From: an uncultured cyanobacterium
GTDB lineage: Bacteria; Cyanobacteriota; Cyanobacteriia; Cyanobacteriales; Nostocaceae
Direction: 5' to 3'
Assembly: GCA_963706595.1 (NCBI GenBank)
Contig: OY970166.1
Location: 352,001 to 416,000 of the forward strand
DNA length: 64,000 bases
Position numbers and translations under genes: made by a program. Positions 10,244-17,042 of the stretch are shown piece after piece (position 1 is the first letter of the stretch; each line of letters starts with the position of its first letter). The notes under the pieces are model-generated. The model made no database searches. It saw only the letters and a list, made by a program, of their open reading frames with translations, and was not told the origin of the DNA.

Positions 10244-11082
10244 CGCATCCGCACACTACCCGCCTGACAATCTCGCAACCAAGTTTTAACTGCTTGGGCA
10301 ATTACACCCTTGCTACTATCCCTGGGGGGCGATACTACTTGTTGTTGTTGAGGATAAGCACCAATTTGGGTAAACATCATTACTAAACGCCACCCAGAGT
10401 TTGTTTTTGTTAATAGAAGCCAGTGAAACTGTTGCGATTCAACGATTTTACCAGCTATATACTGCCGTTCTAAAGTAGTAAAGAAAACTTGCTCTATTCC
10501 TGTTGCTTTACTTTTCTGCTCATCGGCGTTGTATCCACCAGAGTTAATGGGTAGGGGCTGAAACTCTGGTTTTCCTGCTAGTATCACATAACTGTAAATA
10601 TCACTGCTACGACTGCGACGGCGGGCGCGTTGAGTAACACGGTTTGCATAACTTGGTAAATCTTGCAATAGCTGAGTAGTTAATAATTCTAAACTTTGTT
10701 CAGAACAAGTCGAACTTAAGCCATTTTTAACTGCTTGACTCTGAGTTAGGAAAACAGGTGTATTGGCCTCACTGTTCACGGGATATGGAAAAACCAACGC
10801 GAAACCTAACCCCCTAGCCCCCTTCCCTACCAGGGAAGGGGGAAAAGTCAAAGCCTCTCCCCTTGTAGGGGAGAGGTTTGGAGAGAGGTTTTCTAGATGC
10901 CGTGAAAAGTCAGGTGTATTGGCAAATGCTGAGTTATTGATGCTATTTGCCGCTACTAGCCACAAGCCGAAAGCGCAAAGCCATAAGCCATAATTTTTGT
11001 TTTTGACAAATCCAAAATCCAAAATCCTCAAGCCCCTAGATTTATCTGTGGAATCAATCAAAATCCAAAATCCAAAATCCAA
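10183..11082 (-). CDS. Conserved-type cyanobacterial hypothetical protein with in-frame MITE insertion; start uncertain
   Basis: LLQDLPSYANRV...QVFFTTLERQY core; the first ~25 codons derive from heptamer repeats. Confidence 0.7.
   Translation of the reverse strand: MDFGFWILIDSTDKSRGLRILDFGFVKNKNYGLWLCAFGLWLVAANSINNSAFANTPDFSRHLENLSPNLSPTRGEALTFPPSLVGKGARGLGFALVFPYPVNSEANTPVFLTQSQAVKNGLSSTCSEQSLELLTTQLLQDLPSYANRVTQRARRRSRSSDIYSYVILAGKPEFQPLPINSGGYNADEQKSKATGIEQVFFTTLERQYIAGKIVESQQFHWLLLTKTNSGWRLVMMFTQIGAYPQQQQVVSPPRDSSKGVIAQAVKTWLRDCQAGSVRMRQSQLLPPSEPPLSQLLLLP
10767..10914. mobile_element. 148-bp MITE, copy 1
   Basis: TIRs CCTCACTGTTCACGG / CCGTGAAAAGTCAGG; 8-bp TSD TGTATTGG at 10759-10766 and 10915-10922. 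Confidence 0.88.
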
Positions 11083-11099
11083 AATCTAAAATCTAAAAT
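11008..11099. repeat. AAAATC(C/T) heptamer tract with embedded CAAGCCCCTAGATTTATCTGTGG dispersed repeat
   Basis: Related composite at 19737-19824; related CAAGCCCCTG motifs at 46928-47056. Confidence 0.75.
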
Positions 11100-11119
11100 T
11101 GTGTAGTTAACTGATACTT

Positions 11120-12500
11120 TTAACCGAGACATTCTCCGACATTTGAGATATCGTGAACATCCAGTACAACATCACCAACTGAGTCAGTGAAGGTGGTATC
11201 CCACATTGCCTTGAGGAAAATCCCCACGGCTCCATTAAAATCACGCGGTATTTCATAACCACAATTAGGGCAAAAAAAGTTCTTAGAACTACCAAGTTTT
11301 CTATGAGTGTTACCGCATTTAGTGCAAGTCTTCGATGTATATTCTTCAGTTATCCTTACCAATTTGGAACCGTAGCGGTTACACAAATGCTCAAGGGTTT
11401 GAGAGAACTGATAGAATGCCCAAGTCATCATCGCACGGGAAGTCTTATTTCTTAACTTCCGCTTCTTTTTAACAACCATTTGGGAAGTTTCAAAGGTGGG
11501 AAGTACAATCACATCGTAGTTTTTAGCTAGATATGACCCGACTTGTTTATGGCACTCAGAGCGTAGATTCTTGATTCTGGTTCTGAGTCTTTCCATCCCA
11601 AGTCTTATTTTGTATCTCAGACGCTTAAACTTATTTCCAACGCTACTATCATGTCTTGATTTTAGTTTATCCAGGTGTGAGCAAAGTTTAGCTATTTTGC
11701 TGAAATCCCCATTGCCAAACTCCAAGAAATCGCTACCGTCAAAACCAGTCATAAAAGTTCTAATGCCGGGATCAAGTGCGATTACTTTATTTGTCACACT
11801 TACCGTTTGCTCCAATTCTACGGGGAAGTGAGCGAACCAACGACCTTTGTTATAGGTCAATTCTGTTGACCCATCAGTTAGAATGCAAAAGTCTTGTCCT
11901 CTAAATTCAGGTGGTGGTAGATGTTTGGTAGTTGACACCATCCACCTACCATTTTTGTAAGCAGTAGGGTCAAACTGAATGGTTAATTTCTGGTCACGAA
12001 TACTTCGGAATTTGGCAATTTTTAGTCCGGCTTGAGGATGTGGTTTTTTATCTTGACCCTTACCAATAGTCTTTGGATTCTTAGCCGTTTCTGACCATGC
12101 TTTGTACGCTTCCATTGAAGCGTTGTCTAGTATCTTAGAAACGTTTAAGTCTAAACACCATTGGGGTATTAATCCAGAACCTTTAAGCATGGTTCTAAAC
12201 CCCATCTTTCCACCTTTCTTGCCTACTTTACTAAAACCTTGATTTTCGTTCAGATAGGCGATTGAGATGTTATAAACTTTACGAACAGCAGCAACCCATT
12301 TCTTCCAAATAATCTCAAGTTCCTTTACTGGGTATACTCGGTAGCTCACTGTCTTCAGCAACTTGTTTTTTGTACTTTCTAAGCCCGTACAATCGACAAC
12401 TGAAGACATGGATAATGGCAAGGATATCTTCGACCATTTCCCGTTCTGGGCTGAGGTTCGTTTGGTTGAGAACCAATATCTCAGTCTGCTGCCTAGCACA
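11120..12500 (-). CDS. tnpB: TnpB RNA-guided nuclease, Fanzor2/pro-Fanzor-like; start uncertain (frame continues upstream)
   Basis: RuvC-I ALDPG, VIVLPTFET, TEEYTSKTCTKC...CPNC zinc finger, RuvC-III RDFNGA. Confidence 0.88.
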
Positions 12501-13000
12501 ATCCATGAGATAAGATCGAACCCAAAGCGACAAAGCCGATCTTTGTGGGCAATGACAACAAGTTTGCAAGTGTTTGTGAGAACTCTGTCCAGTAAGGTTT
12601 GAAGACCTTTTCGTTTGAAATTGAGTCCGCTTCCGATGTCGGTGATGATTTCTGCGTCGGGGTAACGAGCAGCAAGAAACTCAATTTGTTGAGAGAGGTC
12701 GTTTTTCTGACCGCGACTTGAAACCCTGGCATATAAAAGGGTAGCTCGTTCATCTGCGGGATTACCGCGTCGAACAGGGATAACTGAATCGAGGTTATAT
12801 CTTCTTTGCCCCCCCTGAGTGAAGATACCTTCAATTTTCCCGTCTTCAAGCCACCTTTCGAGCGTTTTGGTGCTGACTCCCAGTCTGGTAGCAGCGACTC
12901 TTGGAGGTACATAGTTTATTGGCATGGACTAAGTTTGTTACTTGTCCTACTATACCACAAAATGTCTGGGTATGTCTGACTATGTTAGGGTAAATTAAGT
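11124..13000 (-). mobile_element. IS607-family element (serine recombinase TnpA plus TnpB)
   Basis: GG dinucleotides (minus strand) at 13001-13002 and 11124-11125; GACAT/ATGTC short repeats near both ends; no TSD. Confidence 0.82.
12315..12925 (-). pseudogene. tnpA: IS607 TnpA serine recombinase, frameshifted at ~12500
   Basis: N-terminal HTH, YARVSS catalytic motif, DIGSGLN, DRLCRFGF; C-terminus ILVLNQ...EMVEDILAIIHVFSCRLYGLRKY lies in another frame. Confidence 0.88.
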
Positions 13001-13734
13001 CCTATTTTTAACTCCTCAATAATCTTATTCCAGGCTAACTCAGGTTCAGCCGCCGCAGTGATGGGACGACCAATTACGAGGTAGTCTGCACCGGCTTTGA
13101 TAGCTTGGGCGGGGGTAAGCGATCGCCTTTGATCTCCCTTATCTGCCCATGAGGGGCGCACACCTGGACAAACGAGCAAAAAGTCATCTCCACAAGTTTG
13201 GCGTAACTGTGCAACCTCCTGGGGTGAGCAAACAGCCCCATTCAACCCGCATTCCTGCGCCATCAGGGCCATTTCTAAAGCATATTCTGGTAATTCCAGA
13301 GGAACTTTCAAATCAAAAGCCAGTTGTCTCGAAGAAATACTCGTCAGCAGGGTAATGGCAATTAATTGCGGTGGTTTAACGCCCGCTTGGGTTGCCCCTA
13401 CCTGTACCGCTTCAGTTGCCGCTTTCAGGGCATCTTTGCCAGCCGTGGCGTGAATCGTGAGTAAATCCACCCCGTAACTAGCAGCACTACGACAAGCCCC
13501 CGCTACAGTATTGGGAATATCGTGAAACTTTAAGTCTAAAAATATCCGTTTTTGCCGGGATTTTAAAACTTCCAGGATTGTGGGACCAGAACTAGTAAAT
13601 AATTCTAAACCCACTTTCCAGAAACTTACTTGCGGCAATTGATCTACAAGCGCGATCGCACTTTGTAGATCCGGTACATCTAAAGGCACAATTATTTGGT
13701 CATTAGCCCTTCGGCTACGCTCAGGGTAAATCAT
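12985..13734 (-). CDS. pyrF: Orotidine-5'-phosphate decarboxylase
   Basis: [12 protein letters not shown] signature; VIGRPI. Confidence 0.97.
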
Positions 13735-15120: not shown

Positions 15121-17042
15121 GTGTCGTCTTCTAGGACTTTTACAAATAAGCAGCCACAACGTCAGGCTTCATCGGGTTTTGAGTTTTTGAAAGGAGTAGG
15201 CCAAGTAACGGGCGGTACTCTGCTATCAATCACAATGCTGACAAGCTCTATTGTAGCCGGAGGGCTGGTTGGTCTGGCTATTAGTTTCCGTAATTTACCA
15301 GATGTCAGACAGCTACGTAACTTTTTGCCATCAGAAACAACTTACATTTATGACATTAATGGCAAACTGTTAACAAGTCTTCACGGTGAAGCCAACCGAG
15401 AAGTCATACCCCTAGATAGAATTTCCCCAAATCTGAAACGGGCAGTATTAGCCAGCGAAGATAGTCATTTTTACGACCATCACGGCATCAATCCCAGTGG
15501 TGTCGGACGGGCTTTAATCGTTAACTTGGTAGCAGGTAGGGTGCGAGAGGGCGGCTCTACCATCACCATGCAGTTGGTGAAAAATTTGTTTTTATCTCAA
15601 AAACGTGCCTTTACTCGGAAGTTAGCGGAAGGAGTACTGGCAATTCGATTAGAGCAAATTCTCAGCAAAGACCAAATTTTAGAAATGTACCTCAATCAAG
15701 TTTATTGGGGTCATAATAATTATGGTGTACAAACGGCAGCACGCAGCTATTTTGACAAATCAGCAGAAATATTAACCTTGGCTGAGTCAGCAATGATGGC
15801 GGGTTTAATCCAAGCGCCAGAAGAATTCAGTCCCTTTGCGAGTATGGAATTGGCAAGACGCAAACAAAGGGAAGTTTTGGGGCGGATGCTGGAATTGAAG
15901 TGGATCAGCCAGCAAGAACATGATGATGCTCTCAAACAAGAGATCAAATTTGGTCGCATCAGGTCATTCCAAGGTAGTGCCTTACCTTATGTCACTAATA
16001 CTGTGTCTCAAGAATTAGTCCAAAAATTTGGGCGTGAGGCGTTGATTAAAGGTGGAATGCGTGTGCAAACCACTGTTGATGCGGAATTCCAAACGATGGC
16101 GGAAAAAACTGTCACTAAGTGGCAGTAACAACTTGAGCCGTCAAGGGTTGCGTGATAATCAAATTGCTCTGGTAGCCATTGACCCCCGCACACATTTTAT
16201 CAAAGCACTGGTAGGCGGTGTAGACTCTAAAACTAGCGAATTCAACCGTGCCACCCAAGCCCAGCGTCAACCCGGTTCTGCTTTTAAACCCTTAGTATAT
16301 TATGCTGCTTTTGCTACTGGTAAATATACACCAGACAGCACAGTACAAGATTCGCCAGTCAGTTATCGAGATGGTAGCGGTTGGTACAGTCCGAGAAACT
16401 ACGACGGTGGCTTTCAAGGAGCAATATCAATACGGTCAGCCTTAGCCCAGTCTCGCAATATCCCGGTGATTAGGTTGGGTAGAGCTATAGGCATGAATAA
16501 AGTCGTAGAAACCTCCCGTACCTTGGGAATCATGAGTCCGATGGCACCTGTAACTTCCTTACCACTGGGAGCTATAGGCATTACACCCCTGGAACTAGCT
16601 AGTGCTTACGCTACCTTTGCTAATTATGGCTGGCAATCACCAGCCACAGTGATTGCTCGTGTTACCGATAGTAGTGGTAATGTCTTGCTAGATAATACAC
16701 CCAAACCCCAGTTAGTTCTAGATCAATGGGCATCAGCAGCAACTATCGATGTGATGCGTTCCGTAGTCACTTCGGGGACTGGTAAAGGTGCAGATATTGG
16801 TCGTCCCAGAGCGGGTAAGACAGGCACAACTTCATCGGAAAAAGATATTTGGTATGTCGGTACTGTGCCACAGTTGACAACTGCTGTCTGGATAGGTAGA
16901 GACGACAACAGACCATTATCTAGAGGTGCAACAGGTGGCGGTATGGTAGCTCCCATCTGGAAAGATTTTATGCAGCAAGCTCTCAAAGGTGTACCTTCAG
17001 AGAACTTTAAACCACCTTCTGGGTTTGCGCCCCAAACCCTAA
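15121..17042 (+). pseudogene. Class A penicillin-binding protein (PBP1A family) with two apparent frameshifts, possibly assembly errors
   Basis: Transglycosylase EDSHF/GGSTITMQL/RKLAE; transpeptidase SAFK, SRN, KTG in the next frame; shifts near 16125 and 17030. Confidence 0.85.

Follow-up and report, generated by a model that had tools for sequence, protein, structure and literature searches.

We analysed a stretch of 64,000 nucleotides (positions 352,001 to 416,000 of contig OY970166.1, assembly GCA_963706595.1, from an uncultured cyanobacterium of the Nostocaceae), hereafter the window, in which the 3' end of pyrF, coding for orotidine 5'-monophosphate decarboxylase, is occupied by a mobile element with a serine recombinase gene (tnpA) and a nuclease gene (tnpB). 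In our reading, to which we give a probability of about 0.85, this is an IS607-type element of the cyanobacterial pro-Fanzor TnpB lineage, inserted by crossover at an AG dinucleotide within AGGAG/TTAAC (slashes mark junctions throughout), four codons before the pyrF stop, and its target-adjacent motif (TAM) and guide can be predicted. The features of the locus, all on the minus strand and in window coordinates, are the following.

12985-13734, pyrF as now read, an open reading frame (ORF) of 249 aa with a PF00215 match at residues 13-238 (E 4.5e-57)
13012-13016, left flank AGGAG, the predicted TAM, whose last two bases (13013-13012) are the AG crossover; host sequence in the empty site of a related genome
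11111-13011, the IS607-family element, 1901 bp with the right-end AG (11112-11111) counted once
13008-12985, element-derived last 7 codons of pyrF and TAA, identified by comparison with the pyrF ends of relatives
12962-12987, left-end subterminal repeats TAACAT, CAGACAT and CAGACAT with a spacing of about 10 nt, kept in relatives
12949-12978, promoter-like site (CAGACA, 18 nt, TG-n-TATAGT) overlapping these repeats, a consensus match only (2 found against 4.3 expected)
12315-12925, tnpA (IS607 serine recombinase), in two pieces because of a 1-nt deletion between 12501 and 12500
12493-12912, 139-aa remnant of an N-terminal extension of tnpB in the +1 frame, truncated by this deletion
11120-12925, 601-aa ORF made by the deletion, in which TnpA residues 1 to about 147 run into the tnpB frame
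11120-12349, TnpB core of pro-Fanzor type, 409 aa from a GTG at 12349 to the stop at 11122-11120 (NF040570, 167 bits, cut-off 100)
11111-11298, predicted omegaRNA scaffold, ending at the right end of the element, only its last 9 nt lying past the tnpB stop
11128-11152, right-end subterminal repeats ATATC, ATGTC and ATGTC, inverted relative to those of the left end, again spaced by about 10 nt
11091-11110, predicted guide template TTAACTACACAATTTTAGAT, the first 20 nt of the right flank after ...CAG, with the same sequence after AGGAG in the related genome G002
11093-11107, displaced original pyrF end ACT ACA CAA TTT TAG (TTQF and stop), identified by comparison with locus L025 of G002

The tnpB gene lies downstream of tnpA on the same strand. 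The first piece of tnpA matches NF033518 (IS607 transposase) over positions 3-139 with 134.7 bits (cut-off 110) and the second piece over positions 142-187, and the domains PF00239 and PF00376 are those of a serine recombinase with an N-terminal MerR-like helix-turn-helix (HTH). In the 601-aa ORF (12925-11120), Pfam places the MerR-type HTH and the resolvase domain N-terminally and the OrfB_IS605 and Cas12f1-like TNB domains C-terminally. The element has no terminal inverted repeats, generated no target duplication and shows a single 2-bp core at both junctions, as IS607 elements do; this core is AG and not the canonical GG. The subterminal repeats of both ends are likely binding sites for TnpA. 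These protein matches (NF033518, NF040570 and PF00215), together with the empty sites described below, bear out the proposal of a first-pass annotation that an IS607-family element with a TnpB sits in the 3' end of pyrF without target duplication.

The ends of the element were mapped from empty sites and from other copies. The 3' part of pyrF was searched against 61 related genomes and the downstream sequence was read at 30 loci, while copies of the element were sought by DNA search in 301 genomes of the family, 61 of which gave matches. None of the ten same-genus genomes is among these, and pyrF is uninterrupted in all ten. One of them, G002, holds the exact empty site (L025), GAGGAG/TTAACTACACAATTTTAG, which is identical to the two flanks of the window copy joined and reads at greater length ...ATTGTTGAGGAG/TTAACTACACAATTTTAGATTTTAGATTTTGG... 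All 27 right ends finish with (G/A)TT(A/G)AAAG(T/A)ATCAG (in the window ...GGTTAAAAGTATCAG, with ...GTATCAG ending at 11111), and in all 26 copies with a right flank the sequence diverges directly after ...CAG. The left ends were read by eye in 24 copies, excluding L078, in which short repeats replace this end. Each consists of an unrelated flank, RGAG, a variable tip of 6 nt and then ATAGGAC or a near variant (CTAGAAC, TTATAAG). The tip varies with the lineage of the element (TTAAAA in the window copy; TTAGAG, TTAAAG, CAAAAG and others elsewhere), and the border between flank and element falls between 13012 and 13011. Across copies, the two junctions have nothing but AG in common: nine of the 24 left flanks read AGAG, and hence have no GG there, and all 27 right ends read ...TCAG. 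A second empty site, in genome G068 for the L052 copy, reads ...CAG/TTACAACC, with AG again directly before the right flank. From the G002 empty site, the 27 right ends and the 24 left ends it follows that the element corresponds to window 13011-11111, with its crossover at AG (13013-13012 and 11112-11111).

The genome that holds the window (G000) also carries a 5'-truncated remnant of 483 nt (C1:5139300-5139782; L002:1501-1983, minus strand), identical at 482 of 483 bases to window 11593-11111 and with the same ...GTATCAG end in a different flank; it counts as one of the 26 copies with a right flank. The sequence to the left of this remnant is not a high-copy repeat in G000. A search of PMC9956272, as available, for cyanobacterial IS607 ends yielded nothing.

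By inserting four codons before the stop, the element exchanged the last four residues of PyrF (TTQF) for KIGLNLP and a new stop. Its first bases, TTA AAA ATA GGA CTT AAT TTA CCC TAA, keep the Leu codon and supply a seven-residue tail with a stop; the idea that the element provides a new PyrF tail was thus sound, 13008-12985 being element sequence. The native protein ends in ...EELTTQF in G002 and in ...EELTTVG, ...EELATVG or ...EELNTVK in other members of the genus. The altered tail is probably harmless, given that the Pfam domain stops at residue 238 of 249 and that the final residues vary among relatives. Between pyrF and the next gene lies a block of TTTTGGA/TTTTAGA heptamer repeats (window 11020-11100, minus strand), which is present only in G000 and G002 and differs in repeat number between the two (locus L025). 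In the other eight members of the genus, the pyrF stop overlaps the ATG of the next gene (GGGATGA or AAATGA).

TnpB matches the regular expression used by Yoon et al. to define Fanzor-like TnpBs (PMC10711439), with DPG, a glutamate six residues before the first CxxC, a second CxxC and an aspartate, at residues 385-562 of the 601-aa ORF, and both the D-E-D triad of RuvC and the zinc finger are intact by this criterion. The best solved relative is Fanzor2 L79 of mimivirus (PDB 9b0l), at E 8.5e-22 with the single sequence and 3e-30 with a family profile. On these sequence grounds, TnpB is to be placed with the pro-Fanzor IS607 TnpBs. G000 also harbors two copies of a second DPG-type IS607 lineage (L104:628-2196, at C1:4648154.., and L105, at C1:1019764..), whose TnpB no longer has the two CxxC pairs of the zinc finger, replaced by VSWT and SPSD, and in which the nested ORF described below is retained.

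The left flanks of the 24 copies all read RGAG, with G at position -4 in 15 and A in nine, and are variable at position -5. The predicted TAM is thus 5'-NRGAG, here AGGAG, and the guide is predicted to start with TTAACTACAC... at 11110. AGGAG followed by the predicted guide sequence TTAACTACACAATTTTAGAT is present as such in G002. When 21 copies were aligned over their last 260 nt, several stretches showed no variation, third codon positions included, and RNAalifold returned a fold of 44 pairs in 7 helices. Standard pairs are formed in 97.4% of the cells (93.7+/-0.3% in shuffled alignments), and 12 pairs show compensatory changes, compared with 5.0+/-1.4 in shuffles (none of 500 as high) and 1-5 when the partners were slid. 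A long-range helix pairs window positions of about 11298-11287 with 11133-11122, and the scaffold is therefore set at about 11298-11111. The first-pass annotation had put the omegaRNA scaffold entirely within the 3' coding region of tnpB, which holds for nearly all of it (11298-11111) but not for the last 9 nt, past the stop. No Rfam family was found at gathering threshold in L002, and a search of window 10900-13200 at E up to 1 gave no RAGATH-18, only a chance snoRNA match at E 0.37.

Together, these observations suggest how the element would work. Insertion would have proceeded by a serine-recombinase crossover at AG within 5'-AGGAG/TTAAC-3', without target duplication, pushing the old end of pyrF 1.9 kb downstream. 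The last 190 nt or so of the element, nearly all inside the tnpB coding region, would encode an omegaRNA scaffold ending ...GGUUAAAAGUAUCAG, to which transcription running on into the right flank would add the guide UUAACUACACAAUUUUAGAU. TnpB with this omegaRNA should cut the vacant site, where AGGAG precedes the guide match as in G002, and should spare the occupied site, where TATCAG stands in place of the TAM. Cutting of vacant sites would then drive re-copying of the element into emptied copies of the chromosome. The remnant in G000 holds the whole predicted scaffold with a different would-be guide, AAAGAAGTTATTTGGGATGT. Mini-copies of about 330 nt were also observed (L079 in G028, with similar matches in G028, G235, G074, G066 and G289, query positions 1597-1921); they consist of GAG, a left tip of about 9 nt and the last 325 nt of the element, i.e. 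the omegaRNA region, with an identical breakpoint in every case, and may represent non-autonomous carriers of guide RNA.

In intact relatives, the tnpB frame extends through tnpA. In all 16 full-length relatives (67-89% nucleotide identity; L052-L067, L077 and L080 are among the copies with the nested frame), tnpA is an ORF of 200-203 aa. The tnpB frame, in +1, begins there with an ATG located 13 nt downstream of the start of tnpA and meets no stop before that of tnpB itself; the resulting ORF has 580-607 aa, most often 597. The second lineage in G000 (L104:552-2196 and L105), in which TnpB identity is just 42%, shows this arrangement too, with an ORF of 522 aa, and a database search with the extension alone retrieved 51 clusters, mostly of 585-610 aa. 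In synonymous-codon shuffles of tnpA from 14 copies, 4-10 stops are expected in the +1 frame (P for the number observed, 0-0.011 per copy), and the few stops that were counted lie upstream of the ATG of the nested ORF. Median synonymous divergence (120 pairs from the 16 copies) is 0.385 in tnpA compared with 0.717 in tnpB codons 1-320 and 0.465 in the 3' part bearing the omegaRNA, non-synonymous divergence being similar across the three regions; the synonymous deficit is seen over the full length of tnpA, most strongly in the second half. The motifs PYW and WFST of the alternative frame are invariant or nearly so across both lineages (the P in 12 of 14). As a control, 251 genomes of the phylum were searched for IS607 tnpA and the 30 best loci were examined: the script found no tnpA at 3 loci and no downstream frame of at least 250 aa at 12, tnpB lacks DPG and overlaps tnpA by 0-26 nt at 14, and a single locus, the L054 copy again, is of DPG type, with an overlap of 599 nt. 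The nested arrangement thus appears specific to the pro-Fanzor type, and the nested frame looks like genuine dual coding.

We lean, by a small margin, towards a nested tnpB extension of about 190 codons running through tnpA, maintained by purifying selection, confined to the DPG type and maybe a forerunner of the N-terminal domain of Fanzor2. This last idea is based on the position and length of the conserved C-terminal 90 or so residues of the extension, from which such a domain may have arisen. Fanzor2 has a structured N-terminal domain (residues 53-130), seen in no other TnpB structure according to the sections of PMC11832414 at hand; it precedes the strand that aligns with residue 188 of the 597-aa protein, and the full-length family profile aligns to L79 only from this residue on. 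The positional parallel is suggestive. A less probable, yet serious, explanation is that the long frame is not a translated and selected part of the protein, and reflects instead a constraint at the RNA or DNA level or translational coupling in which the peptide itself has no function. In its favor, AlphaFold2 with a 38-sequence alignment gave a predicted local distance difference test (pLDDT) score below 50 for residues 1-185 of the 597-aa protein, a profile of the extension alone against the PDB at E up to 10 produced only two chance matches and no relative, Pfam gave no relative, and an Atlas feature search scored 0.83-0.85, which is the chance level. The dual-coding explanation is preferred on account of the frame being open in every full-length copy and in the distant second lineage, the stops expected from the shuffles, the low synonymous divergence of tnpA, the two invariant motifs, and the canonical IS607 loci, none of whose 14 overlaps exceeds 26 nt. 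No published description of the arrangement was found: the main text of PMC10711439, as available, does not use the words N-terminal, extension or reading frame, and PMC3627910, where a tnpB-over-tnpA arrangement was sought, does not contain the word overlap in its available part.

In the window copy, the nested ORF is broken by the 1-nt deletion that also splits TnpA, at about profile position 140. The missing base is a C between 12501 and 12500: an extra base is present there in all 14 aligned relatives (GGAT/TGTG in the window compared with GG(C/A/T)T(C/G/T)TG), as well as in contigs from the RNA libraries of runs X1 and X5, which are 95-99% identical. A genuine deletion would leave the recombinase inactive and the element unable to move, and this copy is hence probably immobile. 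The other IS607 tnpA genes of G000 belong to different lineages. It is unlikely, though by no means negligible, that the frameshift is an assembly error and that the element is intact and mobile, with a normal TnpA of 203 aa and a TnpB ORF of 597 aa. This would fit the relatives and near-identical environmental contigs, in which GGATCTGTG, a GATC site, stands in place of the GGATTGTG of the window; the completeness of G000, a single contig, which is 94.05% compared with 98-100% in nine of the ten genus members; and the frameshift in one of the 22 window genes matched to G002 over 32 kb of alignment, with none in the reverse comparison. The deletion site is, however, not a homopolymer, and GATC is not depleted in the window (2.77 per kb, 2.34 in G002), although this density is in itself inconclusive on assembly error. 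Furthermore, the element is present in G000 as a single copy with one other decayed remnant, as in a decaying family. The frameshifted gene codes for a penicillin-binding protein (602 aa in G002; window about 16060-16190, plus strand) and lies in two frames near 16122 with several small indels; it is either a real pseudogene or a product of residual indel errors of the assembly.

With regard to the junctions, it is very improbable that the element runs from AAATAGG to GTATCAG with a 4-bp TTAA (or 6-bp AGTTAA) target duplication in the fashion of DDE-type transposases. TTAA does occur on both sides in the window, and AGTTA on both sides of the L052 copy, but the left tip and the right flank have no more than AG plus 0-2 bases in common in the 17 other copies for which both ends were read, tips of the TTAAAA kind go with the lineage of the element while the flanks are unrelated, and the transposase is a serine recombinase. 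Target duplication was consequently rejected; the AGTTAA at both junctions of the window copy appears to be a coincidence or a weak preference. Hardly any weight is left for a crossover at GG, with junctions ATAGG/ACTT and CTCGG/TTAA, excision rebuilding a PyrF ending in ...ELKIG, a TAM (A)TAGG and a guide TTAAAAGTATCAG..., since, for all that GG is the canonical IS607 core (10.1101/2023.11.20.567912, PMC10711439) and occurs near both ends of the element, the empty sites of G002 and nine other same-genus genomes lack TTAAAAATAGG and TTAAAAGTATCAG, the 13 nt taken as flank are invariant in all 27 copies with unrelated flanks, and ATAGGAC or a near variant is internal to the element at all 24 left ends.

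The GG crossover had been the proposal of the first-pass annotation, whose quoted strings are indeed present on the minus strand (AAAATAGG/ACTTAATTTACCCTAA at 13008-12985 and ATGTCTCGG/TTAAAAGTATCAG at 11132-11111). Its junctions, however, were misplaced, the left one by 11 nt and the right one by 13 nt, as judged from the G002 empty site, the 27 right ends and the 24 left ends, and the core is AG. Empty-site orthologues with different junctions, which it had itself named as evidence that would overturn it, were found in the relatives. The insertion point is four codons ahead of the pyrF stop and not in the last codon, and the uninterrupted PyrF of relatives ends in ...EELTTQF or ...EELTTVG where ...ELKIG had been reconstructed. 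The flanks give NRGAG, here AGGAG, in place of the TAM (A)TAGG. Derivation of the guide from the right flank is consistent with a flank that starts after ...CAG, but the first 13 nt of the guide proposed, TTAAAAGTATCAGTTAACTA, are the invariant end of the element, and the predicted guide starts with TTAACTACAC. Likewise, the TAA on which tnpB ends (11122-11120, within GGTTAA) had been attributed to pyrF; it is kept inside every copy and is element sequence.

Several observations weigh against our reading of the element, including those that speak for an assembly error. AGTTAA stands at both junctions of the window copy, so that the crossover point is fixed here only by the other copies. For the L054 copy, the empty site that was tried proved ambiguous and was set aside, since the flanks differ from those of relatives by 21 nt between two GAGs. 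This difference of 7 codons between two GAG triplets, observed between L054 (G184) and L082-L092, may stem from a deletion that the recombinase made next to the insertion, or from an allele that was already there. The TAM was taken from insertion flanks, which reflect the target choice of TnpA and not necessarily the requirement of TnpB, and the altered N-terminus in this copy may impair TnpB. Finally, the metatranscriptomes compared (four of 11 runs) provided contigs of relatives only, without RNA ends or strand; these contigs are pieces of related elements, and X2 also contains the empty pyrF allele of a relative.

The corrected insertion is that of an ordinary, neatly resolved IS607 element with a natural vacant target. 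As a sister genome contains this target (AGGAG followed by TTAACTACACAATTTTAGAT), the TAM, guide and homing of a pro-Fanzor-type TnpB can be tested with native sequences, in a lineage whose TnpBs are the proposed ancestors of the eukaryotic Fanzor nucleases. Because this lineage uses AG, the GG-core rule should not be applied blindly to relatives of IS607. If the nested frame is genuine, it would be a rare case of a long, conserved dual-coding region in bacteria, with a bearing on how Fanzor2 acquired its extra N-terminal domain.

Among known systems, CboIStron of Clostridium botulinum (10.1101/2023.11.20.567912, in the parts available) similarly combines a serine TnpA with a TnpB, a scarless 2-bp core at both junctions and a guide formed by the right flank. 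Its TAM, TGGG, corresponds to the left flank with the GG core included, its scaffold ends at the core, and its right end, TCGG, escapes cutting through position -3. The right end here also mimics the TAM and differs at -3 (TGGG and TCGG there, RGAG and TCAG here). In contrast to CboIStron, the core is AG and not GG, no group I intron is present, TnpB is of the DPG type with a relocated glutamate, and the tnpB frame covers all of tnpA in relatives. AGGAG is the TAM determined experimentally for 18 of 22 strains of RAGATH-18-type IS607 TnpBs (PMC11061315); as in these enzymes, such as ISFba1, the element here has an IS607-associated RNA-guided nuclease, with the TAM 5'-AGGAG equal to the pentamer left of the insertion. 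RAGATH-18-type enzymes are otherwise different, measuring about 387 aa and occurring mostly in Firmicutes (PMC11061315). The RuvC mutants of ISFba1 (D194A, E290A and D371A) place its glutamate about 80 residues before the last aspartate, whereas here it lies six residues before CxxC, and the RAGATH-18 motif of ISFba1-type guide RNAs has no counterpart here among Rfam matches at E up to 1.

In ISXfa1 of Xylella fastidiosa (PMC10711439), a right-end RNA of about 150 nt runs past the boundary, as predicted here, and the fixed flanking nucleotide derived from the core is part of the scaffold and not of the guide; unlike the element described here, ISXfa1 has a GG core and a GGG TAM. Further parallels are found in the cyanobacterial pro-Fanzors and in Fanzor2 ApmFz2 and L79 (PMC10711439, PMC11832414), which share the DPG and the glutamate six residues before the zinc finger. 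The TAM of ApmFz2 is, on the other hand, GGG (PMC10711439). The passages on pro-Fanzors in PMC10711439 mention neither an N-terminal extension nor an overlap with tnpA, and sequence homology of the extension with the N-terminal domain of Fanzor2 was sought by profile and not found. In Fanzor2, residues 1-130 form an N-terminal part that precedes the first strand, the one aligned with residue 188 of the protein here (PMC11832414), and an IS607 TnpA partner is common to pro-Fanzor TnpBs (PMC10711439) and to the element in pyrF.

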